Source of the DNA: an uncultured Myxococcales bacterium
Lineage (GTDB): Bacteria; Myxococcota; UBA727; VGSZ01
DNA: 58,912 nt
Reading direction: 5' to 3'
Assembly (NCBI GenBank): GCA_964580865.1
Contig: CAZONM010000002.1
Span: 1-58,912 of the forward strand
Part shown: in pieces, positions 2,966 through 54,478 of the stretch
Position numbering within the stretch: the first letter of the stretch is position 1
Layout of the letters: every line of letters starts with the position of its first letter
Notes under the pieces: generated by a model
Database searches by the model: none
What the model was told of the DNA's origin: nothing
Seen by the model: only the letters and a program-made list of their open reading frames with translations
Position numbers and translations under genes: made by a program

Positions 2966-2966
2966 C

Positions 2967-33331: not shown

Positions 33332-33498
33332 CGTTCCGCCTCCGCTCGCCGGCCCGCGCGCCGTGCCGTGCCGTACCTCCGCTAATCCGCGCGGCGCGCG
33401 TCGTCTACGGAGGGCTACGCAGGATCGCGACGTGACGGCGGCGGGTGCGACACGGTGCGCGTCCCCTGTTGGCCCGCGCCGTGCAGTCACCCTGCGCT

Positions 33499-37848: not shown

Positions 37849-39450
37849 ATGCCTGCGCGTGTCGCTCCGCCACGCCCTCGCGTCGTCATGACGGTGGCGC
37901 TCGTCCTCGCCGTCTCGTGCGCGCCCGACGACGCCACGCCCGCGCCCGCGGCGCTCGAGCCCCTGCCTCCGCTCGCGCATGCTGCCACCACGCGCGTGCG
38001 CACCCTCGTGCCGGTGCACGACGCCATGCCGGGCAACCCGACGAACCCGGGGCGACCGGAGAACCTCCAGGGGTACCTCGAGCTGGGCCTCGGCGACGTC
38101 ACCGAGGGGCCGCCCGACGACGTGGTGGTGCACGCCCTCGGCACCGTGGCGGGCGCGAGCGCGCCGCTCGACCCAAGCGCCCTGCCGGCCCCCGGGCCCA
38201 ATGCGCGGCGCCTGGCGCGCATCGTCCATCTCGCCGACCTGCAGCTGATGGACGACGAGAGCCCCACACGCGCGGCCGCCTTCGACACCCAGGCGGTGAC
38301 CGCCGCGCTGCGGCCGCAAGATCCCGTCCTCTGCCGCATGCTCAATGCCGCCGTGCGCACCATCAACGCGCTGCACGCGGAGGACCCCATCGACCTGGTG
38401 GTGCTCGGCGGCGACAACGCCGACTCCGCGCAGAACAACGAGGTGCGCTGGGTGCTCGACATCCTCGGTGGCAGCAGCCGCGTCCACTGCGACTCCGGCG
38501 ACGACAACGACCTCGACGCCGACGGCGACGACGGCAAGGACCCGTTCGCCGCCGCCGGGCTCGACGTGCCGTGGCGCTGGGTCAGCGGCAACCACGACGT
38601 GCTGGTGCAGGGCAACTTCGCCGTCGACGACGCGCAGGCCGCCGCCGCGCTCGGCGGCGAGGCAACCATGGGCACGCGCATCTATCAGGGCGAGGGCTTC
38701 GGCAGCATCGCCGACGGTGACGTCGCCATCCCCGACGAGGCGCGCCGCCTGCTGCAGGGCGCCGCCCTCGTCGACCTCGTGGGCGCGGACGACGACGGCC
38801 ACGGGCTCGCGCCCGACGCGCCCATGCCCCCGGGCGCCGTGCGCCCCACCGGCAAGGCGTTCGCCGCCTTCGACCTGCCGGGCACGCGGCTCACCGCGGT
38901 GGTGCTCGACACCTCGCACGCGCGCGGCGGCGCCAGCGGTGTCCTGCAAGCGTCGCACATCGACGCGTTCGTGCGCCCGGTCCTCGACGACGCCGTGGCG
39001 CGGGGGCGCCTCGTCCTCTTGGCGTCGCACCACGCGGCCGACTCGCTCACCACGGATGGCGGGGTGTTTGGCGCCAGCGAGCCCGATGCGCTGTCGAGCG
39101 ACGACTGGCGCGCGTTCCTGAGCGCGTACCCGAACGTGCTGTTCTCGTTGGTGGCGCACTCGCACCGTCACCGCGTGCGCGTACAGCAGACGCCGGGCCA
39201 CGCGTTCTTCGAGATCATGACCAGCGCGCTCGCCGACTGGCCGCACCAGTTCCGGCTCATCGAGCTCTACGACGACGACAACGGCACGCTGCGGCTGGAG
39301 GCCACACCCGTGGACTTCGCCGTCGACGACGACGCGCCAAGCGCGCTCGGCCGCGCGCTTGGGCTCATCGATCGGCTCACGGGGTGGAGCAGCGACGGCA
39401 GCGGCGCGAGCGAGGACCGCGCCATGTCGCTGGTGATCGCGACGCCGTAG
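37849..39450 (+). CDS. Lipoprotein calcineurin-like metallophosphoesterase
   Basis: Lipobox LAVSC; HLADLQ..D, GGDNAD, GNHD, SHH and AHSH motifs. Alternative ATG at 37888. Confidence 0.8.
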   Translation: MPARVAPPRPRVVMTVALVLAVSCAPDDATPAPAALEPLPPLAHAATTRVRTLVPVHDAMPGNPTNPGRPENLQGYLELGLGDVTEGPPDDVVVHALGTVAGASAPLDPSALPAPGPNARRLARIVHLADLQLMDDESPTRAAAFDTQAVTAALRPQDPVLCRMLNAAVRTINALHAEDPIDLVVLGGDNADSAQNNEVRWVLDILGGSSRVHCDSGDDNDLDADGDDGKDPFAAAGLDVPWRWVSGNHDVLVQGNFAVDDAQAAAALGGEATMGTRIYQGEGFGSIADGDVAIPDEARRLLQGAALVDLVGADDDGHGLAPDAPMPPGAVRPTGKAFAAFDLPGTRLTAVVLDTSHARGGASGVLQASHIDAFVRPVLDDAVARGRLVLLASHHAADSLTTDGGVFGASEPDALSSDDWRAFLSAYPNVLFSLVAHSHRHRVRVQQTPGHAFFEIMTSALADWPHQFRLIELYDDDNGTLRLEATPVDFAVDDDAPSALGRALGLIDRLTGWSSDGSGASEDRAMSLVIATP

Positions 39451-39456: not shown

Positions 39457-40005
39457 TCAGCGCTTCGTGAACGAGCAAGGCCCGATGCGCTCGCAGTCCG
39501 CCTGGATGGCGCGCCAGCCGTCGGCCCCGATGGCCTGCAGCGCCATGGGGTAGAGGATCTCGTTCTCTTTGTGGATGTGCGAGCGCAGCACCGGCACGAT
39601 GAAGTCGGCCACCTGGCACAGCCGATCGACGAACGCCTCGTCCGCCGTGGCGTCGGTGCTCACGTGGTCCTTGAGCGCACGCTTGGCCAGGCGCAGCTCC
39701 TCGTGATCGAGGCGCATCATGTGCGGCGGCCCCTCGATGCCCACCTCCTCCATGCGCGGGAACAAGGCCTGCTCCTCGCGCTGGTGGTGCGGCTCGGCGT
39801 CGAGCAGGCTCGACGCGAGCTTCACGAGCTCTTGACGTACGGCGCCATTGGGCTCGAGGCCCGCGGCGCTTTTGCGCGCCTCCACCGCGATGGCGTCGAG
39901 CCGGTCGAGAAAGCCGAGCAGCGTGTCGTGCTCCTCCATCCACACCCGCACCGGGTGGTTCGGAGGAAGCTCGCTCGGGTTGCTCTTGCCCATGGAGGGG
40001 AACAT
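39457..40005 (-). CDS. Hemerythrin/HHE cation-binding domain protein
   Basis: AGGAG RBS; EEH, HHQREEQALFP, DHEE and HIHKENEILYP metal-ligand pattern. Confidence 0.88.
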   Translation of the reverse strand: MFPSMGKSNPSELPPNHPVRVWMEEHDTLLGFLDRLDAIAVEARKSAAGLEPNGAVRQELVKLASSLLDAEPHHQREEQALFPRMEEVGIEGPPHMMRLDHEELRLAKRALKDHVSTDATADEAFVDRLCQVADFIVPVLRSHIHKENEILYPMALQAIGADGWRAIQADCERIGPCSFTKR

Positions 40006-40048
40006 GGTGGTCTCCTGACGATGTCGTTCGCAGCCGGCCCGCTCGGTA

Positions 40049-41224
40049 TCAGTACGCGCGCTCGCCGGTCAACGCCTCACCGATGACGAGCGCGTGCACG
40101 TCGTCGGTCCCCTCGTAGGTGAACGTCGACTCCAGGTTCATCGCATGCCGCATGACGTGGTGCTCGCCCGTGATGCCGTTGGCGCCGAGGATGTTCCTGG
40201 CCGTGCGCGCCGCGTCGAGCGCGATCTTGCAGTTGTTGCGCTTGAGCAGGCTCACCTGCGGCGGCGCGAGCTTGCCCTCGTCCTTGAGGCGGCCATAGTG
40301 CACCGCGAGCAGGCTGCCCTTGGTGATCTCGTTCGCCATGTCGGCGAGCTTCACCTGCACGAGCTGCTTTCTCGCGATGGGGCCGCCGAGCTGCTTGCGC
40401 TCGCAGGCATACTCGACCGCGGTCTCGAGACACGCGCGCGCGGCGCCGAGCACGCCGAAGGCCACGCCGTAGCGCGCGCTCGTGAGGCACGAGAGCGGGC
40501 CGCGCATGCCGTGCACGTTCGGCAGGCGGTTCTTGTCGGGCACACGCACGTCCATCATCGTCAGCCCGCCGGTGTAGCTCGCGCGCAGCGAGAGCTTGTG
40601 CGGGATGTCGGTGGCCGAGAAGCCCTTCATGCCCTTCTCGAGGATGAAGCCCGTGACGTCCTTCGACTCCGACGAGGTCTGTGCCCACACCACCGCGACG
40701 TCGGCGATCTGGGCGTTGGTGATCCACATCTTCTCGCCGTTCAGCACCCACGAGTCGCCGTCTTTCACGGCGCGCGTGGTCATCTGCCCGGGGTTACTGC
40801 CCGCGTTTGGCTCGGTGAGGCCGAAGCAGCCGATGCACTTGCCCGCCGCCATGCGCGGCAGATAGTTGTTCTTCTGCTCCTCGGAACCGAAGGCGTGGAT
40901 GGCGTACATCGCCAGGCTGGTCTGCACGCTGATGAAGCTGCGCAGGCCCGAGTCGCAGGCCTCGAGCTCGTGGCACGCCAGGCCGTAGCCCACCGACGAG
41001 ATGCCGGCGCAGCCGTAGCCCTCGAGGTTGGCGCCGAGCAGTCCGAGGTCGGCCAGCTCACCGATCAGCTCCTTCGGAAAGGTGTGCTTCTCGAAGTCGT
41101 CGACGATGCGCGGCATGCAGCGCGTGCGAACGAAGCGCTTGACGTTGCGCTGGATGGTCTTCTCGTCCTCGGTCAGCAGCGATTGCCAACCGATCAGCTC
41201 GTCGAGATCAAGCCGCGTGCCCAT
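40049..41224 (-). CDS. gcdH: Glutaryl-CoA dehydrogenase (probably decarboxylating type)
   Basis: DSGLRS..SVQ, GCFGLTEP, KMWITN, KLSLRAS.TG, R.QLGGP, LGANGI and TYEGT (catalytic Glu). Confidence 0.88.
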   Translation of the reverse strand: MGTRLDLDELIGWQSLLTEDEKTIQRNVKRFVRTRCMPRIVDDFEKHTFPKELIGELADLGLLGANLEGYGCAGISSVGYGLACHELEACDSGLRSFISVQTSLAMYAIHAFGSEEQKNNYLPRMAAGKCIGCFGLTEPNAGSNPGQMTTRAVKDGDSWVLNGEKMWITNAQIADVAVVWAQTSSESKDVTGFILEKGMKGFSATDIPHKLSLRASYTGGLTMMDVRVPDKNRLPNVHGMRGPLSCLTSARYGVAFGVLGAARACLETAVEYACERKQLGGPIARKQLVQVKLADMANEITKGSLLAVHYGRLKDEGKLAPPQVSLLKRNNCKIALDAARTARNILGANGITGEHHVMRHAMNLESTFTYEGTDDVHALVIGEALTGERAY

Positions 41225-42119
41225 GGAGTCCTCCAGAGATCGTGGTGGCCGCGTCGCCGCGGCGATCGAGCTGATGACGGCGATAGGCGCCGAGCAGGGC
41301 GGCGCCCAACGCGCCTGCGTAGATGCTGTCGGCGTTCGCCACCACCTTGAGCGGCGCGCCCTTGTCGGTGGCGAGCGACTCACGCAAGGCGGTCAGCATG
41401 CCCTCGTCGAGCGCCATGCCGCCCGACACGAACACGGTGTGGTCCGCCTTGATCGCGCGCAGGAGCTTCGACAGGCGCCCGGCGATCGACACGTGGATGC
41501 CCTTCAGGATGTCCTGCGTGGTCACGCCGCGGCTCACCATGTTGATGACGTCGGTCTCGGCCAGCACCGCGCAGATGCCGCTCACCTGCTCGGGCGCCGT
41601 GGCCTTGAGCGAGAGCCCGCCCACGTCTTCCAGCGGCACGCCCAGGTAGCGCGCGATGTTCTCGACGAACTGCCCGGTCCCGCTGGCGCATTGCGAGGTC
41701 ATGCGGTGGTTGAGCACCTTGCTGCGGTCGTCGATCTTGATGGCGCGGGCATGCAAGGCGCCGATGTCGAGCACGGCGCGCGCGTCGTGCTCCAGGAAGA
41801 GCGCCCCCCGCGCGTGCGTGGTCATCGAGTAGAAGTGGCCGGTGGCGAATTTCTCTGCCGCCTCGCCGTCCCCCGTCGACGCCACGTACACGAGCTTGTC
41901 GGGCTTGATGCCCGCGCTCTTGCACGCATCGGTGAACACGCGCTCGGCGAGCTCATAGACGTTGCGGCGCCGGATGCGCTCACACACGCGCGTCACGATC
42001 TCGCCGTGCTCGCCGGCCTTGCTCTTGGTGATCACGACCTTGACGGCGCCGGCGCCGATGTCGATGCCCGCCGAGTGAACCCATGGGGCGTCGTTCCCGC
42101 GTTGATCTTGCATGGTCAT
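41208..42119 (-). CDS. bcrD: Class I benzoyl-CoA reductase subunit D (ASKHA ATPase)
   Basis: GIDIG, STGDGE, TTHARGA, DIGALH, MTSQCASGTGQF, SGICAVLAETDVINM. Confidence 0.93.
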   Translation of the reverse strand: MTMQDQRGNDAPWVHSAGIDIGAGAVKVVITKSKAGEHGEIVTRVCERIRRRNVYELAERVFTDACKSAGIKPDKLVYVASTGDGEAAEKFATGHFYSMTTHARGALFLEHDARAVLDIGALHARAIKIDDRSKVLNHRMTSQCASGTGQFVENIARYLGVPLEDVGGLSLKATAPEQVSGICAVLAETDVINMVSRGVTTQDILKGIHVSIAGRLSKLLRAIKADHTVFVSGGMALDEGMLTALRESLATDKGAPLKVVANADSIYAGALGAALLGAYRRHQLDRRGDAATTISGGLHGHAA

Positions 42120-42137
42120 GGCGATTCCTCTCTTCTT

Positions 42138-43538
42138 TCAGCCGCAGCTCGCGCAGGCGTCGTCGGGTTGGGCGTAGTCCTTCATCGCCTTCTTGTCGGG
42201 CCGCTTGACGACCAGCAGGTTGGCCTTGCCGGCCCGCAGGTCGTCGAGCGCGAACAAGGCTGCGCCGAGCGCGCCCATGAAGATCGAGTCGGGGTGGACG
42301 TTGAGCGTGATGTCGTTGCCGTAGTTCTCATCGACCAGCTCGCGCAGCACCTTCGTGGCCATGTCGTTCTTGCACACACCGCCGGTGAAGGTGAGCTCGC
42401 TCTTCACGCCGCCCGAGCGCGCCAACAGGCTCATGGCGCGCAGCATGATGGCCTTATGCAGGCCCGCCAAGATGTCCTCGCGCTCCTCACCGAGCGACAG
42501 GCGCTCGCGCAGCTCGGCGCCCGCGAACACCGTGCACGTCGAGTTGATGCGCACGCTCTTGCACGACTTGAGCGCGAGCGGCCCGAGCTCGTGCAGACCG
42601 AGGTTCAGCTCGTCGGCGATGTAGCCGAGGTAGCGACCGCAGCCGGCGGCACAGCGATCGTTCATCTGAAACGTCGTCACGACACCCTTGTCGTCGACCT
42701 GGATGGCCTTGGTGTCTTGCCCGCCGATGTCGAGCACGGTGCGCGTACCGGGGAAGTACCGGTGCGCGCCGCGGCCGTGACACAGGATCTCGGAGCGCAC
42801 CGCGGCCTTGGGGAACGGCAGCGTCTGCCGCCCGTAGCCCGTGCCCGCGAACGCGATCTCGTCGATGGGCTCCGTGCCCACCGAGTCGACGATGTCGAAG
42901 AAGCGCTTCTTGGCGCCCTCGGGCAGGACGCCCGCGATGCGCCGCGCGGCGCGACCGAGCGTGGCCGCGAAGTCGAGCTCGCGCAGCTCGGTCTCGACGT
43001 CGAGGATGGCGCGATCGAACGGCCAGGTCAGCTCCTCGAAGCGCAGGCCGCGCTCGGCCGCGAGCTTCTCGGCCGCGTGCATGAAGGCCGCGCCCGCGAT
43101 GTCGCGGAAGAAGTCGCTCTTGCGCCCATCGCCGCCCAAGAACAGCGCCGGCGCGTCGCTCTGCATGCGGTCGAAGATGCCCGCGAGCGCGTCCTTCACC
43201 TGCGAGGTCCCGCGCGTGCCCGCCGCGGCCACCACCTCGGTGACGCGCTGGCGCAGCGCGGCGAGCTCGTCGAGGTAGAGCTCCAGGCGGAAGGCCGCGA
43301 GCAACTTGTCACCGAGCGCGCGGATGTCGCTCGCGCCGTCGCCCGTGAGGCCGTCGAGCTTGCGCGCGAGCAGGTTGAAGCGCGCCGAGGTCACCGCCTC
43401 GTCGCGCGCCACGGCGCTCGCCACCTCGTAATTCGAACGGCTGTTGGTGATGCCCTTGCCCACGATCTGGCCGTCCTCGTCGATGAGGATGGCCTTGGTG
43501 GTGGTGGAGCCGAGATCGACGCCGACACAGACTCTCAT
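42138..43538 (-). CDS. bcrA: Class I benzoyl-CoA reductase subunit A (ASKHA ATPase)
   Basis: GVDLGSTTTKA, GITNSRSNY, GTGYGR, SEILCHG.GAH, DIGGQDTK, MNDRCAAGCG, NSTCTVFA. Confidence 0.94.
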   Translation of the reverse strand: MRVCVGVDLGSTTTKAILIDEDGQIVGKGITNSRSNYEVASAVARDEAVTSARFNLLARKLDGLTGDGASDIRALGDKLLAAFRLELYLDELAALRQRVTEVVAAAGTRGTSQVKDALAGIFDRMQSDAPALFLGGDGRKSDFFRDIAGAAFMHAAEKLAAERGLRFEELTWPFDRAILDVETELRELDFAATLGRAARRIAGVLPEGAKKRFFDIVDSVGTEPIDEIAFAGTGYGRQTLPFPKAAVRSEILCHGRGAHRYFPGTRTVLDIGGQDTKAIQVDDKGVVTTFQMNDRCAAGCGRYLGYIADELNLGLHELGPLALKSCKSVRINSTCTVFAGAELRERLSLGEEREDILAGLHKAIMLRAMSLLARSGGVKSELTFTGGVCKNDMATKVLRELVDENYGNDITLNVHPDSIFMGALGAALFALDDLRAGKANLLVVKRPDKKAMKDYAQPDDACASCG

Positions 43539-44914
43539 GCGTTGCTCCCAATCACGACGGGTGCGGGACCCGACGCGGCGATCTTTCCGTTGCGACGCGC
43601 CTCGAGCATCTGCAGGTAGCTCTGCAGGCGGTTCTCGATGTTGGCCTTGCCGAAGTAGCGCGGATCGACGAGGTCACTCTCGACGAACGCGCCGGGCACG
43701 CCGGTGCGCTTCTCGAGCTCGCGCAGGATCATGAGCTGCCCGGCCGAGAACGAGTTGCAGCTCTTCACCGAGTTGATGAGGAAGCCGTCGGCGGAGTAGC
43801 TCTTGATGTACTTCTCGAGCAGGTCGATGCGGCTCGGCAGCGAGCGGTTCGTGTAGCAGCCGAGGCAGTAGTCGGCGAGCGTGCCGAGCGGGTCCTGCGG
43901 ATCGTGACGGAAGCCCTGATCGTACAGGCCGCCGACGCGCGTGTACGTCGACGCCACCGCGATGGCGCCTTCGTTCGAGAACATGTTCCAGAACTCGTTG
44001 AAGTGGGTCCAGCTCGGCGGACCCTCCACCACCAGGCGGTACTTCTGGTTGTTCATGACGCCGGCGGGCGTCATGGGCCCCTCACCGGCCTTGATGCGCT
44101 CGTTGACCTCGGCGAGCAGCTCCTCGTAGTAGGCCACGGCGTCTTCGCTGCCGCGGAAAGCCGAGAAGATGGGCCCGATGTAATAGACGCCACCGAAGTA
44201 GCCATCGATGGGCGACGGCTTGTTCCGCGCCGACTCCCACACCTTGACCAGCGCGTCCTCGGCGCGGCGCGAGCGCGCCAGCTGCTCCGACAGCTTGTCG
44301 AGGCTGAGCTTCATCCCCGTGATCTGCTCCATCTGCGGGATGACGTCGCTCTTGAGCTGATCGACGACGTACTGCCGCATCTCGGGCGTGATGTTGCCGT
44401 CGGCCTGATAGGGCACGTGCAGCATCACCACGGGGCAGTTGTATTCGGCCTTGAGCAGCTCGAACCACTTCATGAAGGTGAAGCAGCCCGTGTACGAGAG
44501 CAGCAAGAGGTCGGGGCTCGGCAGCGTCTTGCCCGTTGGGCCCACGTTGCCGGTGCGCAGCATGCCGATGTCGCACTTGACGTAGCTGCACACGTCCTCA
44601 CTGTGCCCGCCGCGCTCGGCCTCGCTGATGTACGCGCCGCTCTTGCCGCGCATGCCCGACTGCAGGGCGTTGATCTCGGGCAGCACCGGCAGCATCTCGA
44701 ACGCGCCCATGAGCTCGGTGAGGTTGCCAGGCACGAAGGTGTAGGCCACCTTCTTGCCGTCGGCCTTCGCCGTCGAGAGACGGTCGAAGTGCTCGGCGAT
44801 CATGCGCTTCTGCCGCTGTTGGCTTGCGTCTTTGGTGGTCGGCACGGTGACGGCCGAGCCCTCCGACGGAGGCGCGCCCTTGGAACCCTTGGAACCGATG
44901 TTGACGAGGCTCAT
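43535..44914 (-). CDS. bcrB: Class I benzoyl-CoA reductase subunit B
   Basis: FVPGNL.EL, PEINALQ, DVCSYVK.D, YTGCFTFMKWFE, SCNSFSAGQ, ESDLVDPRYF; ATGA overlap with bcrC. Confidence 0.93.
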   Translation of the reverse strand: MSLVNIGSKGSKGAPPSEGSAVTVPTTKDASQQRQKRMIAEHFDRLSTAKADGKKVAYTFVPGNLTELMGAFEMLPVLPEINALQSGMRGKSGAYISEAERGGHSEDVCSYVKCDIGMLRTGNVGPTGKTLPSPDLLLLSYTGCFTFMKWFELLKAEYNCPVVMLHVPYQADGNITPEMRQYVVDQLKSDVIPQMEQITGMKLSLDKLSEQLARSRRAEDALVKVWESARNKPSPIDGYFGGVYYIGPIFSAFRGSEDAVAYYEELLAEVNERIKAGEGPMTPAGVMNNQKYRLVVEGPPSWTHFNEFWNMFSNEGAIAVASTYTRVGGLYDQGFRHDPQDPLGTLADYCLGCYTNRSLPSRIDLLEKYIKSYSADGFLINSVKSCNSFSAGQLMILRELEKRTGVPGAFVESDLVDPRYFGKANIENRLQSYLQMLEARRNGKIAASGPAPVVIGSNA

Positions 44915-46104
44915 GCCGCTGACTCCCACAGGCGCACGGCGTCGGAGAAGGCGCCAGCCTGTTCACGAATGACCTGGAACTGCCCGGTGTTCTCGGCGTA
45001 CTTGAACGAGGTGAAGGGGATGCCCGCGCCCTCGCACGCGGCCTCGAGCATCGGCTGATCGAGCAACGCGGGGTCGCAGAACGACGCGGCCGCGAAGATG
45101 ACGCCGTCGGCCTTGGCGCGCTTGACCTGCTCGAGCAGCGCCGCGCCCTTCTGGCCCTCGCCGATGTAGCGCGACGCGGTCGCCTTGCCCTTGTGCAGGA
45201 AGGCGTTGACGATGGCGTCGAGCGGATCGCCGACGTCGTCGATCATGCCCTCCATGTAGTCGAGCCCGAGCTGCAGATCGTCGGAGATGATGTCGCAGCC
45301 GGCGCGCTCGAGGCTCTTGATGAGGCCGAAGGGCGGCTGCTCGCAGAAGCTGCCCACCAGCACCACGCGCACGTTGTCCTTGGGCTGGCCCGTGCGCTTG
45401 CCCGCCGCCGCCACGTACTCCTCGACGAGCGAGGCGTGCTCACGCGCGCTGACAGCGCCGCCGGCGCGGGTCACCAGGTAGGCCTCGGAGGCCGGCACGC
45501 GCCACGAGGCGTCGCGGCGCAGGGCCGCGAGCTTGTCGAGCGCCGCGCGGCGCACGTTCTCGTCCTTGATGGCCGCGCGCAGCCCCTCGTCGGTGAGGGC
45601 CTTGGCGCCGCGCTCGTGGAGCTCGCGCGCTAGGCGCTTGAGCTCGAGCTTGTAGAAGCGGCCGCCCACCTCGGGGCGGAAGTTCTGCGGCAGATCGAGG
45701 TACGCCGCCCACTTCTGCGGGAACAGCATCTGCCACATGCCGCTCAGGTTGCGGATGACGTCGCAGATGGCGGGAAAGATCATGCCGTCGAGCGAGTCGA
45801 GCATGCCGGTGAGGCCGAGCTCGATGGTGCTGCGCGGGATATGGCAGATGTAGCTCTGGAAGTACGAGTCGCCGCGGATGATGTCCTTGTCCCCGGCGCC
45901 GTAGATGGCCACCGGGAGCACGCCGATGGCCTCGAGCAGCACGCGCGGCGTGTAGATGGGCATGTGGCCGATGGCGAGCGCGCCCTTGTTCTTGTCCTTC
46001 CACGCCTTGACCGGCGCGGTGCCGTAGTCGTCGACGAGCGCCTGCGCGCGCTTGAGGACCGCCGCGGCGGGGTCGTTCGTGGAAGCGGTGGGTTGAGCGG
46101 TCAT
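44911..46104 (-). CDS. bcrC: Class I benzoyl-CoA reductase subunit C
   Basis: GDSYFQSYICHIPRSTIELG, CDVIRNLSG, GSFCEQPP, SFCDPALLD, FKYAENTGQFQVIREQAG.F. Confidence 0.93.
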   Translation of the reverse strand: MTAQPTASTNDPAAAVLKRAQALVDDYGTAPVKAWKDKNKGALAIGHMPIYTPRVLLEAIGVLPVAIYGAGDKDIIRGDSYFQSYICHIPRSTIELGLTGMLDSLDGMIFPAICDVIRNLSGMWQMLFPQKWAAYLDLPQNFRPEVGGRFYKLELKRLARELHERGAKALTDEGLRAAIKDENVRRAALDKLAALRRDASWRVPASEAYLVTRAGGAVSAREHASLVEEYVAAAGKRTGQPKDNVRVVLVGSFCEQPPFGLIKSLERAGCDIISDDLQLGLDYMEGMIDDVGDPLDAIVNAFLHKGKATASRYIGEGQKGAALLEQVKRAKADGVIFAAASFCDPALLDQPMLEAACEGAGIPFTSFKYAENTGQFQVIREQAGAFSDAVRLWESAA

Positions 46105-46835
46105 GCGCTATCTCCCGGTGACTTGACGAGCTGCAACAGAGGAAGGGGCTTCTTGCCGGCCAAGCGCTCGACGGTCTCGGTGACGTCGGCGTTGGCGTCG
46201 TGCATGGGGCATGCGGGCCGCAGGCCGCACAACAGCAAGCGGTGGAGCGTGTGGGCGAGCACCTGTGGTGTGCCGTGCACGGCCGGGCGGTACCAGCCGT
46301 AGGTCCAGTTGATCATCCCGAACAGGGCGTAGGTCTGGCGTTCGAGCTCGAGCGGATCGACCTTGGCCTTCTTGGCGGCGCCGTTCTTCTTGGGCGTGCA
46401 CGACGCCTCGTCGAGCACGCCGGCGACGACGTCGCGACCGATGGCGTAGTAGCGCTCCTTGACGGCGCGCACCACCGCGCGCTGCTTGGGCGGCAGCGCA
46501 TGCGCCTCTTGGATCAGCACCTGCATGATCGCGTGATTGCTCGCCACGTACTGCACGTGCTGCTGGATGAACGCGTAGAGCTTGTCGACGGGCGAGCTGC
46601 CCTGCGCCACCGCCGCCGTCGCCGACTGCACCAGCGTCTCGAAGGCGCGCTGCTGCAGATCGGCGAGCAGATCCTCCTTCGACGCGTAGTAGTTGTAGAA
46701 GCCCGCCGGTGTCTTGCCGAGCGCCTTGGCCAGATCGCGCATCGACATGCCGTGGAAGCCGTGCTTCGCCAGCACGCCCGCCGCGGCCTCGAGGATCTCG
46801 AGGCGTCCTTCCGCTTTGCGGGAGGGACGCGCCAT
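46101..46835 (-). CDS. TetR-family regulator (KstR2/PaaR-like C-terminal domain)
   Basis: HTH ILEAAA...GFHGMSMRDLA..LG...FYNYYASKEDLL; C-terminal FGMINWTYGWY.P; overlaps both neighbours. Confidence 0.92.
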   Translation of the reverse strand: MARPSRKAEGRLEILEAAAGVLAKHGFHGMSMRDLAKALGKTPAGFYNYYASKEDLLADLQQRAFETLVQSATAAVAQGSSPVDKLYAFIQQHVQYVASNHAIMQVLIQEAHALPPKQRAVVRAVKERYYAIGRDVVAGVLDEASCTPKKNGAAKKAKVDPLELERQTYALFGMINWTYGWYRPAVHGTPQVLAHTLHRLLLCGLRPACPMHDANADVTETVERLAGKKPLPLLQLVKSPGDSA

Positions 46836-47605
46836 CAGCGGTCCTCCCACGCGGGTCTGCGCCGCTCGAGGAATGACGCGATGCCCTCGTTGGCGTCGTG
46901 GCTCGGCAGCAGCTCCTCGACGTACTGCCGCTCGGCGACGTCGAGGGCGCCCTCGAGCGCGTGCAGCAAGCCGCCCGCGCGCCGCGCCACCTTGGTGGCC
47001 TGACGGATCGCGAAGGCCGACAGCGGCGCCAGGTGCTCGCGGTACCAAGCGAACACCTCGGCCTCGTCGACGACGATCTTGCTGACGAAGCCGCTGCGCG
47101 CCGCCTCGTCGGCGTTGATGGTGGCCCCGGTGATGACCAGCCGCTCGCCGAGCGCGTGCCCCAGGCGCAGCGGGCCGATGGCGGCGAGCACCGGCGGGAA
47201 CACGCCGAGCTTCACCTCGGGGCAGCCGAACTTCGCGTCCGACGTGCAGAACACCAGGTGGCAGGCGCACACGACCTCGAAGGCGCCGCCCAGGCACTGC
47301 CCGCGCACCAGCGCGGCCACCGGCACCGGGTGCGCGGCCAGCGCGCGGATGAAGCGATGGAAGGCCGCCAGCATGCCGGGCGCGGCCTCCTTCTTGTGCT
47401 CTTCCACCGAGGCGCCGAACGAGAAGTGCGCGCCATCGCCCTCGAGCACCACCAGCTTGAGCTTGGGGTCGTCCTTGTGCTCGTCGAGCGCGGCGGTGAT
47501 GGCGGACATCATCGCCATCGAGAAGATGTTGCCCTTGCCGCCCGTGAGCAGCACGCGCTGCACGCGTCCGTCCTCGAGCATCTCGGTGCGCACCAGTCGC
47601 GTCAT
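46835..47605 (-). CDS. dch: Cyclohexa-1,5-diene-1-carbonyl-CoA hydratase (crotonase fold)
   Basis: KGNIF, HFSFGASVEEH, CLGGAFE, FGCPEVKLGVFPP, DANEGI..F; context within the bcr cluster. Confidence 0.85.
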   Translation of the reverse strand: MTRLVRTEMLEDGRVQRVLLTGGKGNIFSMAMMSAITAALDEHKDDPKLKLVVLEGDGAHFSFGASVEEHKKEAAPGMLAAFHRFIRALAAHPVPVAALVRGQCLGGAFEVVCACHLVFCTSDAKFGCPEVKLGVFPPVLAAIGPLRLGHALGERLVITGATINADEAARSGFVSKIVVDEAEVFAWYREHLAPLSAFAIRQATKVARRAGGLLHALEGALDVAERQYVEELLPSHDANEGIASFLERRRPAWEDR

Positions 47606-47615
47606 CGCCGCCCCC

Positions 47616-48743
47616 TCACTCGCTCATCAGCTTCTTGAATGCCGGCCGCGCCGAGGCGGGCAGCACGCTCTCCACCAGCTCTTGGTTGAAGCGCGCGCCC
47701 TCGGCCACGCGGCGGCGCAGCTGCGCGAAGTCGATCTCGCGCTCCTTGCCCTCGCCGAAGTGGAAGGCGGGGAAGCCGGCCATCGCCTCGGTGTTCATGT
47801 TGAGCGACAGCCAGCTCCGGCTGGTCTCGCAGTTCTTCTGCCAGGCCTCGAGCTTCTTCTTCCGGAAGCTCTCGAGCGTCTTCCGCGTGCAGTCGGGGAA
47901 GGTGTAGAGGAGCTTGGTGACGAGGGCGTTCACCGCCTTGTCGAGGAGCGTGAGGTCAATCTCGCACTCGCTCGCCGCGGCCTTCGCCTTCTCCTTGGCG
48001 TCGCCGTCCTTGAAGTCGCCGTACACCACGCGACCGTACTCATCGAGAAACCGCTCGGTGACGACGTACGGGTTGGCGATGAAGGTGCCGTCCTTCTTCT
48101 TGTGCACGGGCACGATCTCGTTGACGATGCCGAAGTGCATGGCCTTGTGCGCCGACCATGGCTCGCACAAGACCAGCGACTCGGGCGCGCGCCCCACGCC
48201 CACGTACAAGTCGAGGAAGTCGGTGCTGCCGCCGTCGGGCGCCGAGCCGTGCTTGGGCCCCGCCTGGCCGTAGCGCGCGTGATCACCGGAGACGGTGAAG
48301 TCACACGCCATGCCGATTTCCTGGCCGCCGCCGATGCGCATGCCGTTGGCGCGGCACACGACGGGCTTGTCGCACAGCAGGATCGTCGTCACCATGTCGT
48401 TGAACAGGCGCATGTACTGCGCGTACTCGAGGGGACGACCGGCGTAGTACGTGGTGTACTCCTCGGTGTTGCCGCCGGTGCAGAAGGCCCGGTCGCCCAC
48501 CGCCGTGAACACCACGGCCACCGCGCGGCGATCGCAGCTCGCACGACGGAACGCCAGGATCACGTCCTTGACCGTATCCGTGGTGTAGCTGTTGAGCTGC
48601 TTTGGGTTGTTGAGCGAGATCCACACCTGATGCAGCCCGGCGACCTCATTGCCTGCGGTGTCGAGCACCGGCTTGGTCTCGTATTTGATGTGCGAGAAGA
48701 CGTAGTCGGCGACGAGCTCGTGGTTCCTGAGGGTGAGGGCCAT
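47616..48743 (-). CDS. oah: 6-oxocyclohex-1-ene-1-carbonyl-CoA hydrolase (ring cleaving)
   Basis: AAGGAG RBS; LNNPKQLNSYTT, FCTGGNT.EY..YYAGRP.EY, GMRIGGGQEIGMACD, QAGPKHGSAPDGGSTDFL, NMNTEA. Confidence 0.93.
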   Translation of the reverse strand: MALTLRNHELVADYVFSHIKYETKPVLDTAGNEVAGLHQVWISLNNPKQLNSYTTDTVKDVILAFRRASCDRRAVAVVFTAVGDRAFCTGGNTEEYTTYYAGRPLEYAQYMRLFNDMVTTILLCDKPVVCRANGMRIGGGQEIGMACDFTVSGDHARYGQAGPKHGSAPDGGSTDFLDLYVGVGRAPESLVLCEPWSAHKAMHFGIVNEIVPVHKKKDGTFIANPYVVTERFLDEYGRVVYGDFKDGDAKEKAKAAASECEIDLTLLDKAVNALVTKLLYTFPDCTRKTLESFRKKKLEAWQKNCETSRSWLSLNMNTEAMAGFPAFHFGEGKEREIDFAQLRRRVAEGARFNQELVESVLPASARPAFKKLMSE

Positions 48744-48772
48744 GGTTCGCTCCTTTGGATCGAAGGGAGTGC

Positions 48773-49834
48773 TCAGAGGCGGGGATCGAGGGTGACGCGG
48801 CGCGTGAGCGTGTGCGCGCGCATGGCGTCGAGCACGGCGTTGACCTCGCGCATCGGGCGCACCTCGCAGAAGGGCGCGAGCGCGATCTTGCCGGCAGCGA
48901 TGAGGCGCAAGACCTCCGGGTATTGCTCGGGCGGGCAGCCCCACGTGCCGTGCACCGTGGCGTCGAACGCCATCAGGTTCGACAGGCGCACGGTGACGCG
49001 TTCGGGCGTGAAGCCCACCTGCACCATGGTCGAGCAGCGGCCGAGCAGCGAGAACGCGATCTCCTGCGTGGCCGGCAGGCCCGCGCACTCGAAGACCCGG
49101 GTCTTCCACGTGTCGATGCCGAAGCCCTTGGCCAGCTTGCTCGCCTCGTCGCGCACGGCCTTCACGTCCTTGCCGCGCGTGTTGATGGTGGCGGCAGCGC
49201 CGTGCTTGGCCATGAGCGACAGCCGCTCGTCGGCGACGTCAAGGGCGATGACCTTGGCGCCGAGCGCCGCGCACGCCTGGATGACGAAGCCGCCCACGCC
49301 GCCCGCGCCCACCACGTAGCACAGGTCGCCCTCGCTCACGCCGGCGCGGCGCGTCGCCTGCCACGCGGTCGACACGGCGTCGGCGACCACCGAGTACATG
49401 CGCACGTCGACGCCGCCGGTGTCGGCCAGCACCTGGAGCGGGCGCGCGGGCACGAGCAGGTGGGTGGCGAAGGCGCCGTGGATGTCGTTGCCCGGCATCT
49501 TCTGTTTGGGGCACGCGTTGCCGCGGCCCGCCTTGCACAGCGCGCACTCGCCGCAGGGCAGCACCGCGGGCACCACCACGGTCTTACCCACGAGGTGCAG
49601 GAAGGCGTCGCCCGCCTCCACCACCTTGCCGACGGCCTCGTGGCCGAGCACCAGCGGCAGCGGGTGGTTCGTGCGCACGCCACCGTCGGCGAAGCCGAGG
49701 TCGGTGTGGCACAGGCCGTTGCCCCACACCTCCACCACGGCCTCCCCCGGGCCCGGCGCCGGGATGGGCAGCTCGCGCTCCACCAGCGGAGCCTTGGGCT
49801 CGACGAGAAACCAGGCCTTGGCGGTGATGGTCAT
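48773..49834 (-). CDS. had: 6-hydroxycyclohex-1-ene-1-carbonyl-CoA dehydrogenase (Zn-dependent MDR)
   Basis: GLCHTDL, LVLGHE, PCGECALCKAGRGNAC..QKMPGND..G.FATH, VVADAVST, RLSNLMAFDA...G.WGCPP. Confidence 0.9.
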   Translation of the reverse strand: MTITAKAWFLVEPKAPLVERELPIPAPGPGEAVVEVWGNGLCHTDLGFADGGVRTNHPLPLVLGHEAVGKVVEAGDAFLHLVGKTVVVPAVLPCGECALCKAGRGNACPKQKMPGNDIHGAFATHLLVPARPLQVLADTGGVDVRMYSVVADAVSTAWQATRRAGVSEGDLCYVVGAGGVGGFVIQACAALGAKVIALDVADERLSLMAKHGAAATINTRGKDVKAVRDEASKLAKGFGIDTWKTRVFECAGLPATQEIAFSLLGRCSTMVQVGFTPERVTVRLSNLMAFDATVHGTWGCPPEQYPEVLRLIAAGKIALAPFCEVRPMREVNAVLDAMRAHTLTRRVTLDPRL

Positions 49835-49871
49835 GGGGGCCCTCGCGGGAGATCGGGGAGATCGTTTGTTA

Positions 49872-49889
49872 CATGAACGTTCGTTCATG
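49872..49889. promoter_or_regulatory. Perfect inverted repeat CATGAACG-TT-CGTTCATG; candidate TetR operator of the had-oah-dch-tetR-bcr operon
   Basis: 8-bp arms with a 2-bp spacer in an AT-richer patch 38-55 nt upstream of the had ATG. Confidence 0.75.
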
Positions 49890-49899: not shown

Positions 49900-49905
49900 T
49901 GTCAA
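49900..49905 (-). promoter_or_regulatory. Candidate sigma70-type -35 hexamer TTGACA
   Basis: Exact TTGACA on the minus strand 10 nt upstream of the palindrome. The expected -10 position falls inside the palindrome and is a poor match (GAACGT). Confidence 0.4.
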
Positions 49906-50025: not shown

Positions 50026-51099
50026 TCACGCCCCCGCGCCAGGCGCCTTTGCTCCCACGCGTCGCAAGAACGCCATGAAGCGCTCCGGCTCCTCGAAGCA
50101 CGGGGCGTGCGCCGATCGCTCGAACACCAGGTGGGCCTTGGTGGGCGCCTCGATCGTCTTGACATAGCTCTCGACGAGGTGCGGCGGCGTGTTCATGTCG
50201 TGTGCCCCCGAGACGAAGTAGACGGGCACGTCGAAGCGCCGGACCGTCGACGTGATGTCGATGGACATCGCCTCGGGCCACATGGCGTTCATGGTCCGCA
50301 GGAAGGCGCTCATGAATTGCAGCTTGTCGAGCACGCTGTACTCCGACGCGAGCATCAGCGGTGCGACCAGGAGGCCTGCGCCCCTCTCGTCGTGGACCAT
50401 GCCGCCCGACTCGAGCAGCCAGCGCTTCTGCGTCTCGAAGTTGGCAGCGGCGCGTGGCCCCGACCACGGCGGCGGCCCGATGCTCGCGAGCTCGCGTTCC
50501 GCCTCTGCGTTGCCGGCGTCGCGCGCCCAGCGGAGCAGGAGGCGATACGACTCGGCCTCACGCCTCACCCCGTCGGTCCACTGGCCGACGCCGACGTAGG
50601 CGTGCACCACGTCCGGGCGCTGCGCGGCGATGCGCGCGCCCACGATGGTGCCCCAGGAGTGGGCGACGAGCGTGACCTTGTCGACGCCGAACCGGCCGCG
50701 CAGCGTCTCAATGAGTTGGATCGCATCGCGCTGCATCTGGTGGTGCGTCATGGTGCCCGGCGGCACCGCGCGCGCGGCGGAGCGCCCCTGGCCGCGCATG
50801 TCCCATGTCACCACCACGAAGTCGCGCTCGAGGGGCTCGAGGTAGGTGCGCACCATGGGCATCTCGGTGGCGCCGGGCCCGCCATGCAGGAAGAGCAACA
50901 CCGGGTTGTCTCTGCGCTGGCCGCGCAGGAGTACTGCCTGCTCAACGCCACCGAGCTCGATCCACTCGAGCGACGCCACGCCCGTCGCCATCGGAACGCC
51001 GTCCTCGGAGCGGATCGGGGGCGTGCTCGCGCACGCGGTGAGCGCAACGACCAACGCGACCGCCCTCACGTTCAAGAGCTTGCGAAGGAGGATCGTCAT
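50026..51099 (-). CDS. Exported alpha/beta hydrolase (proline-iminopeptidase-like), probable lipoprotein
   Basis: LVVALTAC lipobox; LFLHGGPG, WDMRGQG, AHSWG, SGAHD, SAHAP. Confidence 0.85.
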   Translation of the reverse strand: MTILLRKLLNVRAVALVVALTACASTPPIRSEDGVPMATGVASLEWIELGGVEQAVLLRGQRRDNPVLLFLHGGPGATEMPMVRTYLEPLERDFVVVTWDMRGQGRSAARAVPPGTMTHHQMQRDAIQLIETLRGRFGVDKVTLVAHSWGTIVGARIAAQRPDVVHAYVGVGQWTDGVRREAESYRLLLRWARDAGNAEAERELASIGPPPWSGPRAAANFETQKRWLLESGGMVHDERGAGLLVAPLMLASEYSVLDKLQFMSAFLRTMNAMWPEAMSIDITSTVRRFDVPVYFVSGAHDMNTPPHLVESYVKTIEAPTKAHLVFERSAHAPCFEEPERFMAFLRRVGAKAPGAGA

Positions 51100-51359
51100 G
51101 CCCATCTCCCGTTGCGGCTACCGCCGCTCAGCGCTTGCCGCATAGAGACTCAGTCCTGCTGCAACCACCGCGGTTGCGCCCGCGTCGTCAAGGCACCCCC
51201 ACGGCGATGGCGGCGCTCGAACCCTCGGTCGGCACGGCCTGGGCGTGCAACGCGCCATCGGTGCCGAGCGAGAACACGCGGAACTGCTGTTGCCTCGCGA
51301 CCTCCAACGAGACTCTGACGTTGCGATCCCCGCGCCGCGACGCGCGCGCCCCATGATCC

Positions 51360-52298
51360 TCACGGGCGCTCCGGGCCAGGCGCGCCGTGTGCCACGCGGC
51401 GCACCAGGATCTCGACGAAGCTGCGCGCCTTGGCCGAGGGTCGCCGACCGCCGCCATAGAGCGCCCACACCTGCAGCGGCACGGGCGCGGCCGCCGGCAG
51501 GACGTCGACGAGCGCGCCGCTTTGGAGGTGGGCCTCGACGCGGTACCTCGGCATGACGAACAGACCGACGCCGCCGAGGCACGCGCGCAACAGGGCCTCA
51601 CCATCGTTGGCCGTGAACGGTCCACCGACCACGACGGGCCGAACCCGTCGCCCCACGACGAAGCGCCACTCCGTGGAGCCGGTGCCGAGCGAGCCCCGCG
51701 CGTATGCCAGGCACGCGTGCGCGGCGAGATCGGCGACGGTGCGCGGTCGGCCGCGCCGCTCGAGATAGGACGGGGCGCCGACGACCAGCTGCGGCAGCGT
51801 CATGAGCTTGCGACCTGTCACGGTCCCTTCGAGCGCGCTGCCGATGCGCACGATGACGTCGAAGCCGCCATGCACGATGTCGACGTAGTGGTTGTCGGCT
51901 GCCAGGTCGACGGTCACGGTGGGGTGACGCACCTGCATCTCGGCGGCGGCCTCGGCGACCAGCGTCCGTCCGAAGACCGCGGGCGCGGCGATGCGCAGCT
52001 CGCCGCGCAGCTCGTCGCTCGTGCCGCGACCAATTGCCCGCAGGGCGGCGCGCGCGTCGGCCGCAGCGGTCGGCAGGCCGGCGCAGGCCTCGAGCAGCGA
52101 GGCGCCCGCATCCGTGAGCGAGAGGTCGCGCGTCGTGCGATGCAGCAGCGCGGTGCCCGCGAGCCGTTCCAGGCGCGCCACGCGCGCGCTCAGGCGGCTC
52201 TTCGACATCCCCGCGATCCGTGCGGCTTTGGTGAAGGAGCGCTCCTCCACGACCATCCGAAACGCCATGAGATCACCAACCTCGTCGAACGAATTCAT
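51360..52298 (-). CDS. LysR-family regulator (CrgA/DmlR-like)
   Basis: F..VVEERSFTKAA...GMSKS.LS..VARLE..AG..LLHRTTR.LSLTDAG; GELRIAAP; GGFDV.VRIG. Confidence 0.93.
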   Translation of the reverse strand: MNSFDEVGDLMAFRMVVEERSFTKAARIAGMSKSRLSARVARLERLAGTALLHRTTRDLSLTDAGASLLEACAGLPTAAADARAALRAIGRGTSDELRGELRIAAPAVFGRTLVAEAAAEMQVRHPTVTVDLAADNHYVDIVHGGFDVIVRIGSALEGTVTGRKLMTLPQLVVGAPSYLERRGRPRTVADLAAHACLAYARGSLGTGSTEWRFVVGRRVRPVVVGGPFTANDGEALLRACLGGVGLFVMPRYRVEAHLQSGALVDVLPAAAPVPLQVWALYGGGRRPSAKARSFVEILVRRVAHGAPGPERP

Positions 52299-52309
52299 AC
52301 ACGCGTCCT

Positions 52310-52355
52310 TTGTCCTGTGCGCAGGACGCTATGTCGCGTGCCGGATCCAGGACAA
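52310..52355. promoter_or_regulatory. Inverted repeats TTGTCCTG...CAGGAC / CAGGACAA between lysR and its divergent gene; candidate LysR binding region
   Basis: TTGTCCTG at 52310-52317 pairs with CAGGAC at 52322-52327 and CAGGACAA at 52348-52355. Confidence 0.45.
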
Positions 52356-52440
52356 TCCCCCGTGGCGGCGATCCGGCGAACCGCGCTGCTGCTATGAGAT
52401 GGAAGCGGCCGCGCGCGTGGCCGTGCCGGAGGAAAGCCCG

Positions 52441-53358
52441 ATGCGCCTAGGTCTCATCATTCTGGTCGCCCTGCTGTCGAGCTGCGCGACGCCTCGCTCC
52501 ATCTACGGGACCGTGGACCGCGAGGCCACGCTGATGAACGCCTACCAACAGCGTCTGGCGTCCTGGCCGCTCCCGTACGAGCGACGCTGGGTCCCCACGT
52601 CGTACGGCCTGGTGCACGTGATCGCCTCGGGCCCCACCGACGCGCCGCCCGTGCTGATGCTCCACGCCATGGGGGTCAGCGCGACCATGTGGCGACACAA
52701 CGTCGCGGCGTTGGCGCGTGACCACCGGGTGGTCTGCGTCGACTTCATCGGGGATCTGGGCCCAAGCCGCCTGTGGGTGCCCACCGAGCATCCGCGCGAT
52801 GGCGGCGACGTGGCCGCGCTCCTCGTCGAGGTCCTGGACGAGCTCGCCCTCGGGCGCGTCGATGTGGTCGGCGCGTCGTACGGCGGCTGGGCAGCGCTCA
52901 ACCTCGCCGCGCGCGCGCCCTCTCGAGTTCGCCGCGTCGCGCTGCTCGGCCCCATGGGCGTCGCCCCTGCCACCGCCGACACCATCGAGCGCGTCGCCTC
53001 CCTGGTCCTGCTCCCCACTGAGGACAAGAAGCGCGACATGGTGAACTGGACGCTTGGTCCCTCGCCCGCGGTCCGCGCGGACCTCGAGGACTACATGATG
53101 GAGGCGATGGAGTGCCGCGGAGCGCTGGCCCCGCCCACCACCATCCCCGATTCCTGGTTGAGCCGCATCGAGGCGCCCGTCCTCTTGCTCCTCGGCGATC
53201 GAGACGGTCCGGTGGGGCCAGCCGAGCCCGCGCGGCAACGGATGATCCACCAGGTGCCGACGGCGGAGGTGGTCGTGCTCCCCGACACCGGGCACATGAT
53301 GAGCATCGAGCGACCGGACGTCGTCGGGTCGCGCCTGGTCGCGTTCCTGGGATCCTGA
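52441..53358 (+). CDS. Lipoprotein alpha/beta hydrolase (carboxylesterase-like)
   Basis: Lipobox LLSSC; LMLHA, VDFIGDLG.S, GASYGG, LGDRD, TGHM. Confidence 0.85.
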   Translation: MRLGLIILVALLSSCATPRSIYGTVDREATLMNAYQQRLASWPLPYERRWVPTSYGLVHVIASGPTDAPPVLMLHAMGVSATMWRHNVAALARDHRVVCVDFIGDLGPSRLWVPTEHPRDGGDVAALLVEVLDELALGRVDVVGASYGGWAALNLAARAPSRVRRVALLGPMGVAPATADTIERVASLVLLPTEDKKRDMVNWTLGPSPAVRADLEDYMMEAMECRGALAPPTTIPDSWLSRIEAPVLLLLGDRDGPVGPAEPARQRMIHQVPTAEVVVLPDTGHMMSIERPDVVGSRLVAFLGS

Positions 53359-53385
53359 CCTCCCCGCCGCCGAACGAGGACTCCC

Positions 53386-54361: not shown

Positions 54362-54478
54362 GACCTCGTTGTACGCAGCGCGCGCGCCGCGAGGGGATCG
54401 CCGCAGGAGCACGCACTGTGCTGCCCGCAGGACAGTTAGGATTCCTGCGACGGGGCCGCTCCCACGCCGGGAGGGGCC

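Follow-up and report, generated by a model that had tools for sequence, protein, structure and literature searches.

ATP-dependent (class I) enzymes that dearomatize benzoyl-coenzyme A (benzoyl-CoA) are divided into the BCR, MBR, and BZD types and are the pattern of facultative anaerobes (PMC11971306). The betaproteobacterium Thauera aromatica carries its genes in the order had-oah-dch-bcrCBAD-fdx (PMC6449761) and uses the dienoyl-CoA route via Dch, Had, and Oah. The same overall reaction is carried out by BzdNOPQ of Aromatoleum/Azoarcus, whose BzdO and BzdN subunits are homologues of BcrB and BcrC, respectively, and by the class II BamB-I enzyme. In Azoarcus sp. CIB, the class I mbd cluster is repressed by the TetR-family protein MbdR, which is released by 3-methylbenzoyl-CoA (PMC4424350). 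In the present study, a gene cluster of the bcr kind was analyzed on contig CAZONM010000002.1 of the uncultured bacterium GCA_964580865.1. The whole stretch of 58,912 nt is referred to as the window, and the cluster consists of ten minus-strand genes at positions 39457–49834, in the order had-oah-dch-tetR-bcrC-bcrB-bcrA-bcrD-gcdH-hemerythrin.

Judged from the encoded proteins, the ten genes very probably form a single catabolic operon that would follow the Thauera-type route from benzoyl-CoA, or a close analogue, to 3-hydroxypimelyl-CoA. The likeness to the T. aromatica cluster lies in the core order had-oah-dch-bcrCBAD, in the Bcr-type models matched by the subunits, and in the route itself. 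The differences are a tetR gene that separates dch from bcrC, a stretch after bcrD with gcdH and a hemerythrin gene in place of fdx, and an uncultured high-GC bacterium rather than a betaproteobacterium as the host.

Identification of the reductase subunits

Families were assigned using NCBIfam equivalog models with curated cut-offs, together with Pfam domains. Three of the four reductase subunits passed the strict cut-offs. The gamma subunit BcrC (44911–46104; 397 aa) matched TIGR02263 with 435.1 bits against a cut-off of 421.15, and the beta subunit BcrB (43535–44914; 459 aa; alternative GTG start at 44929), the predicted substrate-binding and catalytic subunit, matched TIGR02260 with 681.2 bits against 486.55. 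The delta subunit BcrD (41208–42119; 303 aa) reached 326.3 bits with TIGR02261 (cut-off 312.85). The alpha subunit BcrA (42138–43538; 466 aa) scored 526.9 bits with TIGR02259, below the cut-off of 578; the match was full-length (1–430 of 432) and the best by a wide margin. Both BcrA and BcrD carry the BcrAD_BadFG domain and are the predicted ATP-binding electron activators, two ATPase subunits of the ASKHA type.

Models of related enzymes scored 4 to 10 times below the Bcr models. The Bzd-type models TIGR03190, TIGR03191, and TIGR03192 gave 98 bits (BcrC on the bzdN model), 68 bits (BcrB on the bzdO model), and 109–138 bits against cut-offs of 454, 449, and 380, respectively. The HadB and HadC models of 2-hydroxyisocaproyl-CoA dehydratase (NF052455 and NF052456) gave 163 and 143 bits (cut-offs 750 and 700, respectively), and the double-cubane reductase model gave 68–91 bits (cut-off 350). 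On comparison with solved structures, BcrB scored 212 bits to MbdO of 3-methylbenzoyl-CoA reductase and 68 bits to BzdO, and BcrA scored 225 bits to MbdQ. The phmmer scores to MbdO and to MbdN (181 bits) were far lower than those on the Bcr profiles, with the caveat that pairwise and profile values are not strictly comparable. From the matches to the Bcr models, the low Bzd scores, and these values for MbdO and BzdO, the enzyme most probably belongs to the Bcr subtype of the BCR/MBR/BZD typology (PMC11971306). The earlier note had read the locus as an ATP-dependent class I reductase of the Thauera type, Bcr and not Bzd, and the equivalog models and subunit comparisons supported that reading. 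The window genes that were scanned included no class II (bam) genes, and an exact-sequence look-up of the window BcrB returned no record.

The cluster-ligand residues of BcrB and BcrC were read against the BzdNO structure paper (PMC11971306). The BcrB motifs SEDVCSY, YTGCFTF, and VKSCNSF aligned with BzdO Cys95, Cys128, and Cys380, and the glutamate of the LPEIN (PEIN) motif is conserved with MbdO and HadB. BzdO His131 is replaced by Phe in the window BcrB, likewise in MbdO. BcrC keeps three of the six cysteines of the BzdN double-cubane [8Fe-9S] cluster and lacks the other three, like MbdN and HadC; thus, an ordinary [4Fe-4S] cluster is implied. The two cysteines of BcrD for the bridging [4Fe-4S] cluster lie in SQCASGTG and GICAVLAETD, both aligned with MbdP, MbdQ, and HadI, and the corresponding motifs of BcrA, NDRCAAGCG and STCTVFAGAE, were seen in the sequence. 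TAL-effector chains that phmmer listed for BcrD against the PDB had zero qualifying stretches and were discarded as compositional artefacts, not homology.

Ring-opening enzymes and lower-pathway genes

The three enzymes expected after ring reduction are encoded at the head of the operon. Had (48773–49834; 353 aa; ADH_N and ADH_zinc_N domains), the 6-hydroxycyclohex-1-ene-1-carbonyl-CoA dehydrogenase, matched TIGR03201 over its full length with 388.1 bits against a cut-off of 338.65. Oah (47616–48743; 375 aa), the ring-opening 6-oxocyclohex-1-ene-1-carbonyl-CoA hydrolase, matched TIGR03200 with 520.7 bits against 464.45, and the BadI model gave 119.5 bits. The product of dch (46835–47605; 256 aa) is a probable cyclohexa-1,5-diene-1-carbonyl-CoA hydratase. 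Its match to TIGR03189 (221.4 bits) was below the cut-off of 292.5 and was the best by more than 100 bits, and the gene holds the same position as in Thauera and, among the related loci of sufficient length, in nearly all. The Dch/Had/Oah route proposed earlier was supported by these matches, and so was the assignment of gcdH to the lower pathway by what follows.

In glutaryl-CoA dehydrogenases, an arginine for the substrate carboxylate and a catalytic Tyr-Glu pair mark the decarboxylating enzymes. GcdH of the window (40049–41224; 391 aa) keeps both in alignments, as the arginine of DSGLRS and the Tyr-Glu of TYEGT. Its best solved structures were 3sf6 (460 bits) and human GCDH 1sir (436 bits), the decarboxylating matches ranging over 390–460 bits, whereas the non-decarboxylating Desulfococcus enzyme 3mpi gave 174 bits. 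This acyl-CoA dehydrogenase is accordingly read, by its matches and residues, as a canonical decarboxylating GcdH.

The final gene of the operon (39457–40005; 182 aa) encodes a hemerythrin/HHE di-iron protein. PF01814 matched residues 17–155 with 76 bits, weak YtfE/RIC similarity was seen, and the His/Glu ligand motifs EEH, PHHQREE, DHEE, and HIHKENE are present in the sequence. HHE proteins are known from the benzoate (box/ben) clusters of Rhodocyclales, where oxygen scavenging is considered possible (PMC6449761), and a literature search for hemerythrin with benzoyl-CoA reductase returned nothing specific. It is plausible that the protein protects, senses for, or repairs an oxygen-labile Fe-S enzyme.

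Gene calling and operon structure

The GC content of the window was 71–75% in most stretches (overall 72%) and lower, at 67–69%, in the region of 40–50 kb that holds the operon. As spurious long open reading frames (ORFs), many of them antisense, are numerous in DNA of this GC content, frames were picked by third-position GC (GC3) and ribosome-binding sites. The GC3 of the operon frames was 0.90–0.96, favoring them over antisense ORFs, and a GGAG-like ribosome-binding site precedes each of the ten genes.

The successive spacings from had to the hemerythrin gene are 29, 10, -1, -4, -4, -4, 18, -17, and 43 nt. The order, coordinates, and overlaps or gaps of at most 43 nt given by the earlier note were thereby confirmed to the base. 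The start of tetR overlaps the stop of dch by 1 nt, its stop overlaps the start of bcrC by 4 nt, and tetR is translationally coupled to both neighbors. Within the operon, the scan found no terminator on the minus strand; the terminator-like matches all lay on the other strand. Downstream of the hemerythrin gene, the next gene (37849–39450) is convergent. Upstream of had, the next gene encodes an alpha/beta-hydrolase (50026–51105), lies 191 nt away, and is absent from the corresponding locus (L001) of a sister metagenome-assembled genome (MAG). Thus, the operon was taken to consist of exactly these ten genes.

Relatives and gene order

The database holds more than 6,800 homologues of BcrB. The nearest are 93–94% identical and come from uncultured MAGs labeled ‘Deltaproteobacteria bacterium’, where the protein already bears the name ‘benzoyl-CoA reductase subunit B’; no cultured Bcr-bearing proteobacterium matched. 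In the sister MAG GCA_016177705.1 (contig JACOUT010000002.1), locus L001 carries the identical ten-gene operon with 81–97% protein identity, and both loci share the same GH31 and GT4-GH32-MFS neighborhood. Between GH31 and had, the window carries approximately 5 kb of genes that L001 lacks (window 50026–55138 versus L001 4946–5063), and it also has an additional metallophosphoesterase of the TIGR03767/8 family, the convergent gene at 37849–39450 after the hemerythrin gene. The extra 5 kb encodes the alpha/beta-hydrolase, a LysR regulator, a second hydrolase, an acyltransferase fragment, and TrpF.

A scan covering one genome for each GTDB species gave at least 593 genome stretches with genes for relatives. 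The best 80 of these came from Myxococcota (Polyangiaceae, Sandaracinaceae, and Nannocystaceae), Acidobacteriota, Planctomycetota, Eisenbacteria, Gemmatimonadota, and others. Synteny was determined by tblastn over 83 related loci (L001–L083), the order being judged as far as each contig reaches. The order had-oah-dch-[tetR]-bcrC-B-A-D was found wherever the contig was long enough, with few exceptions, namely a few loci with had after bcrD or with dch or bcrC undetected. Of the 83 loci, 36 have tetR between dch and bcrC. Directly after bcrD, gcdH was found in six loci (L001, L017, L019, L022, L026, and L029), and a hemerythrin gene closes the cluster, after bcrD or gcdH, in approximately 11. 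A motif search for a 2[4Fe-4S] ferredoxin gene beside bcrD was negative in all 83. In 19 of them (e.g., L002 13579–14067), the gene immediately after bcrD encodes a small GNAT acetyltransferase; the window lacks this gene. Within the 10-kb flanks of the relatives, xanthine-dehydrogenase-family sets resembling 4-hydroxybenzoyl-CoA reductase, a short-chain dehydrogenase (SDR), a thiolase, and an Rrf2 regulator were found.

A neighbor-joining tree of the concatenated BcrCBAD subunits, rooted at the midpoint and built without reference enzymes, separated a mostly tetR-bearing group, mostly of Myxococcota, from a mostly tetR-less group of many phyla. The window pairs with L001 on a long branch at the base of the tetR-bearing group. 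Since phyla are interleaved in the tree, horizontal transfer is indicated. The tblastn search of plasmids with BcrB returned only dehydratase-family genes of approximately 25% identity and gave no sign of plasmid carriage.

The earlier note had regarded the gene order as differing from the model clusters. The core order is that of T. aromatica and of the related loci; what stands of the claimed difference is that tetR is inserted, that fdx is missing, and that gcdH and the hemerythrin gene form the tail. Novelty could not be upheld, given at least 593 stretches with relatives, a sister MAG whose BcrB is already named, and published class I reductases in MAGs of several phyla (PMC11704145). In that work, MAGs for mineralizing lignin-derived aromatics were assigned to Myxococcota, Acidobacteriota, Zixibacteria, and others, and the class I enzyme was present in six of six representative MAGs from Gammaproteobacteria, Desulfobacterota, Acidobacteriota, and Zixibacteria (PMC11704145). 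Class I benzoyl-CoA reductase has also been reported in Krumholzibacteriota (bioRxiv 10.1101/2025.11.25.690425), and a literature search for bcrABCD with Polyangiaceae returned nothing specific. The operon is present in hundreds of public metagenome genomes, and the embedded TetR, its operator, and the lack of a ferredoxin are unexplored traits shared within a large environmental clade, not specific to this contig. These data support the emerging view that class I reductases have spread horizontally over soil and groundwater phyla, beyond the model denitrifiers.

TetR regulator and predicted operator

The embedded regulator (46101–46835; 244 aa) is a TetR-family repressor with TetR_N and TetR_C_24 domains, and its best family matches were the acyl-CoA-type regulators SACE_7040 and Bacillus FadR. 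Among solved structures, 3vpr was the best match. We take 3vpr to be PfmR of Thermus, with a phenylacetate and fatty-acid regulon; 3whb is presumably Bacillus FadR, and 5k7f presumably the isovaleryl-CoA sensor AibR of Myxococcus. These acyl-CoA-sensing regulators gave the best sequence matches to the window TetR, yet the similarity was low (36–68 bits). No MbdR-labeled chain was found among the 25 solved TetR-family sequences that matched.

Upstream of had, a -35-like hexamer, TTGACA (49900–49905, read from 49905 on the minus strand), marks a putative operon promoter. After 13 nt, it is followed by the predicted TetR operator GAACGAACGTTCATGT (49871–49886, minus strand), an imperfect copy of the palindrome GAACGAACGTTCGTTC and the sole match to the consensus in the window. 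The copy is identical in L001, where the stretch from the hexamer to the ribosome-binding site is nearly identical and the sequence farther upstream has diverged.

The case for an operator comes from the related loci. A GAAC(N0-8)GTTC palindrome, whose fullest form is GAACGAACGTTCGTTC, lies upstream of had, at a distance of up to 260 nt, in 27 of 29 tetR-bearing loci versus 2 of 37 tetR-less loci (Fisher p = 6e-14). A stricter form of the motif occurs 43 times in 595 kb of tetR-bearing loci, and approximately 31 of these occurrences precede the first gene of the operon by 17–170 nt, loci that begin with oah included. The GAACGAACGTTCGTTC-like palindrome is likely the TetR operator.

On the basis of the co-occurrence of tetR and palindrome, the MbdR precedent, and the acyl-CoA-type matches, autorepression relieved by benzoyl-CoA or a close analogue is proposed; binding of TetR at the palindrome is an inference, and the effector a guess. 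The mbd system of Azoarcus sp. CIB shares with this locus a TetR repressor, a class I cluster, a palindromic operator overlapping the promoter, and an aryl-CoA inducer (PMC4424350). It differs in its operator, which is ATAC-N10-GTAT rather than GAACGAACGTTCGTTC, in its MBR-type instead of Bcr-type reductase (MbdO, 212 bits), and in the position of the regulator gene, as tetR here lies inside the operon, unlike that of MbdR. The pair of TetR and GAACGAACGTTCGTTC, common to dozens of genomes, could be developed as a benzoyl-CoA biosensor and could serve as an annotation marker for this cluster type.

Proposed function and alternative explanations

In the proposed pathway, BcrA and BcrD would hydrolyze ATP and drive a low-potential electron through a bridging [4Fe-4S] cluster into BcrC and BcrB, and BcrB would reduce the ring to the cyclic 1,5-dienoyl-CoA. 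Dch would hydrate the diene, Had would oxidize the product, and Oah would open the ring. In the lower pathway, GcdH would convert glutaryl-CoA to crotonyl-CoA and CO2. The TetR most likely represses its own operon at the palindrome just downstream of the TTGACA box, before had; its probable effector is an aryl-CoA, for example benzoyl-CoA, which would release it. The probable role of the hemerythrin is to buffer or sense O2 or NO, or to repair oxygen-labile Fe-S clusters, and the electron donor would have to be encoded elsewhere. A use of the operon for cyclohexane or benzoyl starter units of secondary metabolism was also considered and was rejected, as the ring-opening Oah and GcdH are co-transcribed.

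Several observations weigh against this pathway as drawn. Genes for a benzoate-CoA ligase, a ferredoxin-reducing enzyme, or 3-hydroxypimelyl-CoA beta-oxidation were not found, either within the operon or immediately beside it, and the 2[4Fe-4S] ferredoxin motif CxxCxxCxxxC[PAG] is absent from every ORF of the window. As no ferredoxin, ligase, or ferredoxin-reducing enzyme lies nearby, the function would depend on loci elsewhere. The word ‘complete’, which the earlier note had applied to the operon, therefore holds for the catalytic steps from benzoyl-CoA to 3-hydroxypimelyl-CoA and not for the ferredoxin, the CoA ligase, or the beta-oxidation genes. Dch and BcrA fall under their NCBIfam cut-offs, and the enzyme was thus regarded as a divergent member. 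A scan of the operon for the sigma-70 consensus found no full promoter site. The operator copy of the window has three mismatches to the consensus, and such a match arises by chance in 25% of shuffles; since this copy is not significant alone, the operator case rests on the comparative pattern. Moreover, substrate range is not readable from sequence, and benzoyl-CoA reduction is a prediction. According to a title cited in PMC11704145, this reductase family also acts on methyl- and halobenzoyl-CoAs.

One alternative, considered unlikely, is a reductase specialized for a substituted aryl-CoA (e.g., 3-hydroxy-, methyl-, or halobenzoyl-CoA), with the TetR sensing that analogue. Such a specialization would be consistent with the long branch of the window and L001 at the base of the tetR-bearing clade and with the scores of BcrA and Dch below the equivalog cut-offs. 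Furthermore, mbd, the only characterized TetR-controlled class I cluster, serves 3-methylbenzoate, and 4-hydroxybenzoyl-CoA reductase-like sets of the xanthine dehydrogenase family flank the clusters of relatives. However, those neighbors would supply benzoyl-CoA to the operon and not replace it, the models whose cut-offs Had and Oah exceed describe the unsubstituted pathway, and BcrB scores 681 bits on the Bcr model versus 212 bits to MbdO. That the four Bcr proteins are instead a 2-hydroxyacyl-CoA dehydratase with its activator, or another radical enzyme of the BCR/HAD family, is suggested by Pfam, which sees only the shared superfamily domains HGD-D and BcrAD_BadFG, and by the full-length alignment of HadB and HadC. 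The subunits nevertheless did not group with these dehydratases: they passed the Bcr models and remained far below the HadB and HadC cut-offs (163 and 143 versus 750 and 700 bits) and the double-cubane cut-off (68–91 versus 350 bits). The four-subunit set also contains two different ATPase subunits and is co-transcribed with the dienoyl-CoA-specific Dch, Had, and Oah. By these comparisons, the dehydratase explanation is effectively refuted.

A further explanation, which appears improbable, is that the operon is a horizontally acquired module, silent or incomplete in its host for want of a dedicated ferredoxin and ligase. The operon has a GC content of 0.67–0.69 versus 0.71–0.75 in most of the window, its neighbors are unrelated sugar-metabolism genes, phyla are interleaved in the BcrCBAD tree, and the window lacks fdx. 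However, all ten frames are intact, have ribosome-binding sites, and show a host-like GC3, and the protein identity of 81–97% between the operon and neighborhood here and those of L001 indicates purifying selection since their divergence. As none of the 83 relatives has a ferredoxin gene beside bcrD, a donor encoded elsewhere is the norm of the group. The Thauera-type catabolic operon for benzoyl-CoA or a close analogue was retained as the preferred explanation. As the clusters consistently lack a ferredoxin gene of their own, it must be asked which electron donor serves these lineages.

Beyond the function of this single operon, the tetR-bearing clusters, mostly from Myxococcota MAGs, might represent a distinct regulatory and physiological Bcr variant for largely aerobic or microaerobic predators and saprophytes. 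Such a variant would combine a TetR that senses benzoyl-CoA with a conserved operator of 16 bp, would lack a dedicated ferredoxin, and would in some cases include a hemerythrin, and these traits together would permit an oxygen-labile ring reduction. The suggestion is tentative and, on balance, doubtful. If it is true, another low-potential electron donor is used in these organisms, and a di-iron protein serves the O2 protection of ring reduction.

Host and physiology

No rRNA, tRNA, or ribosomal-protein genes were found in the window, and an NCBIfam scan found no lineage-specific families among its hypothetical proteins. The GC content of 72%, a sigma-54 activator, and the predominance of Myxococcota MAGs among the nearest BcrCBAD relatives are consistent with Myxococcota. 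Two eukaryote-like Ser/Thr kinases are encoded at 2931–4331 and 17955–20273 (plus strand), the second fused to PEGA repeats, and the Pkinase-PEGA architecture also occurs a few kb from the bcr cluster in the Polyangiaceae MAG L002. The closest genomes are labeled ‘Deltaproteobacteria’, and the relative RBG_16_71_12 is listed as ‘unclassified Deltaproteobacteria’ in the NCBI taxonomy; a literature search on this relative found no paper that mentions it. When methylmalonyl-CoA mutase was used as a marker, the sister MAGs were 90–92% identical and, beyond them, the best named matches were from Deinococcus (71–74%); thus, the mutase did not place the host phylum. Taken from the window, a Myxococcota host is plausible. 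The locus would then add one more uncultured, probably myxobacterial lineage with ATP-dependent benzoyl-CoA dearomatization.

A decarboxylating GcdH fits the pattern of facultative anaerobes. Together with the ATP-dependent class I enzyme, the predicted decarboxylating GcdH of this operon would fit such a physiology by analogy with the described systems. No respiratory genes were found in the window.

Flanking genes and other observations

The operon is flanked by genes for sugar and polysaccharide functions, hydrolases, and regulators, and the remaining window encodes kinases, two-component and sigma-54 regulators, a GH44 enzyme, and methylmalonyl-CoA mutase with MeaB. At 22472–26454 (plus strand), the gene for this mutase, a fused protein with catalytic and B12-binding domains, is followed by the gene for its MeaB GTPase. 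At 4771–5763 (plus strand), a lone FAD-binding medium subunit of the xanthine dehydrogenase/CO dehydrogenase family is encoded, without an adjacent molybdopterin or Fe-S partner. Homologues of this gene belong to three-gene sets, 4-hydroxybenzoyl-CoA reductase-like, that adjoin the bcr clusters of relatives (e.g., L003 1154–4926). A second dip in GC content (0.66–0.69) was observed at 28000–34000, where a nucleotidyl-transferase, an unknown gene, and a GT28/MGDG-synthase-like glycosyltransferase are located. This region adjoins a fructan/sucrose module consisting of an MFS_2 transporter, GH32, GT4, and a PfkB kinase.

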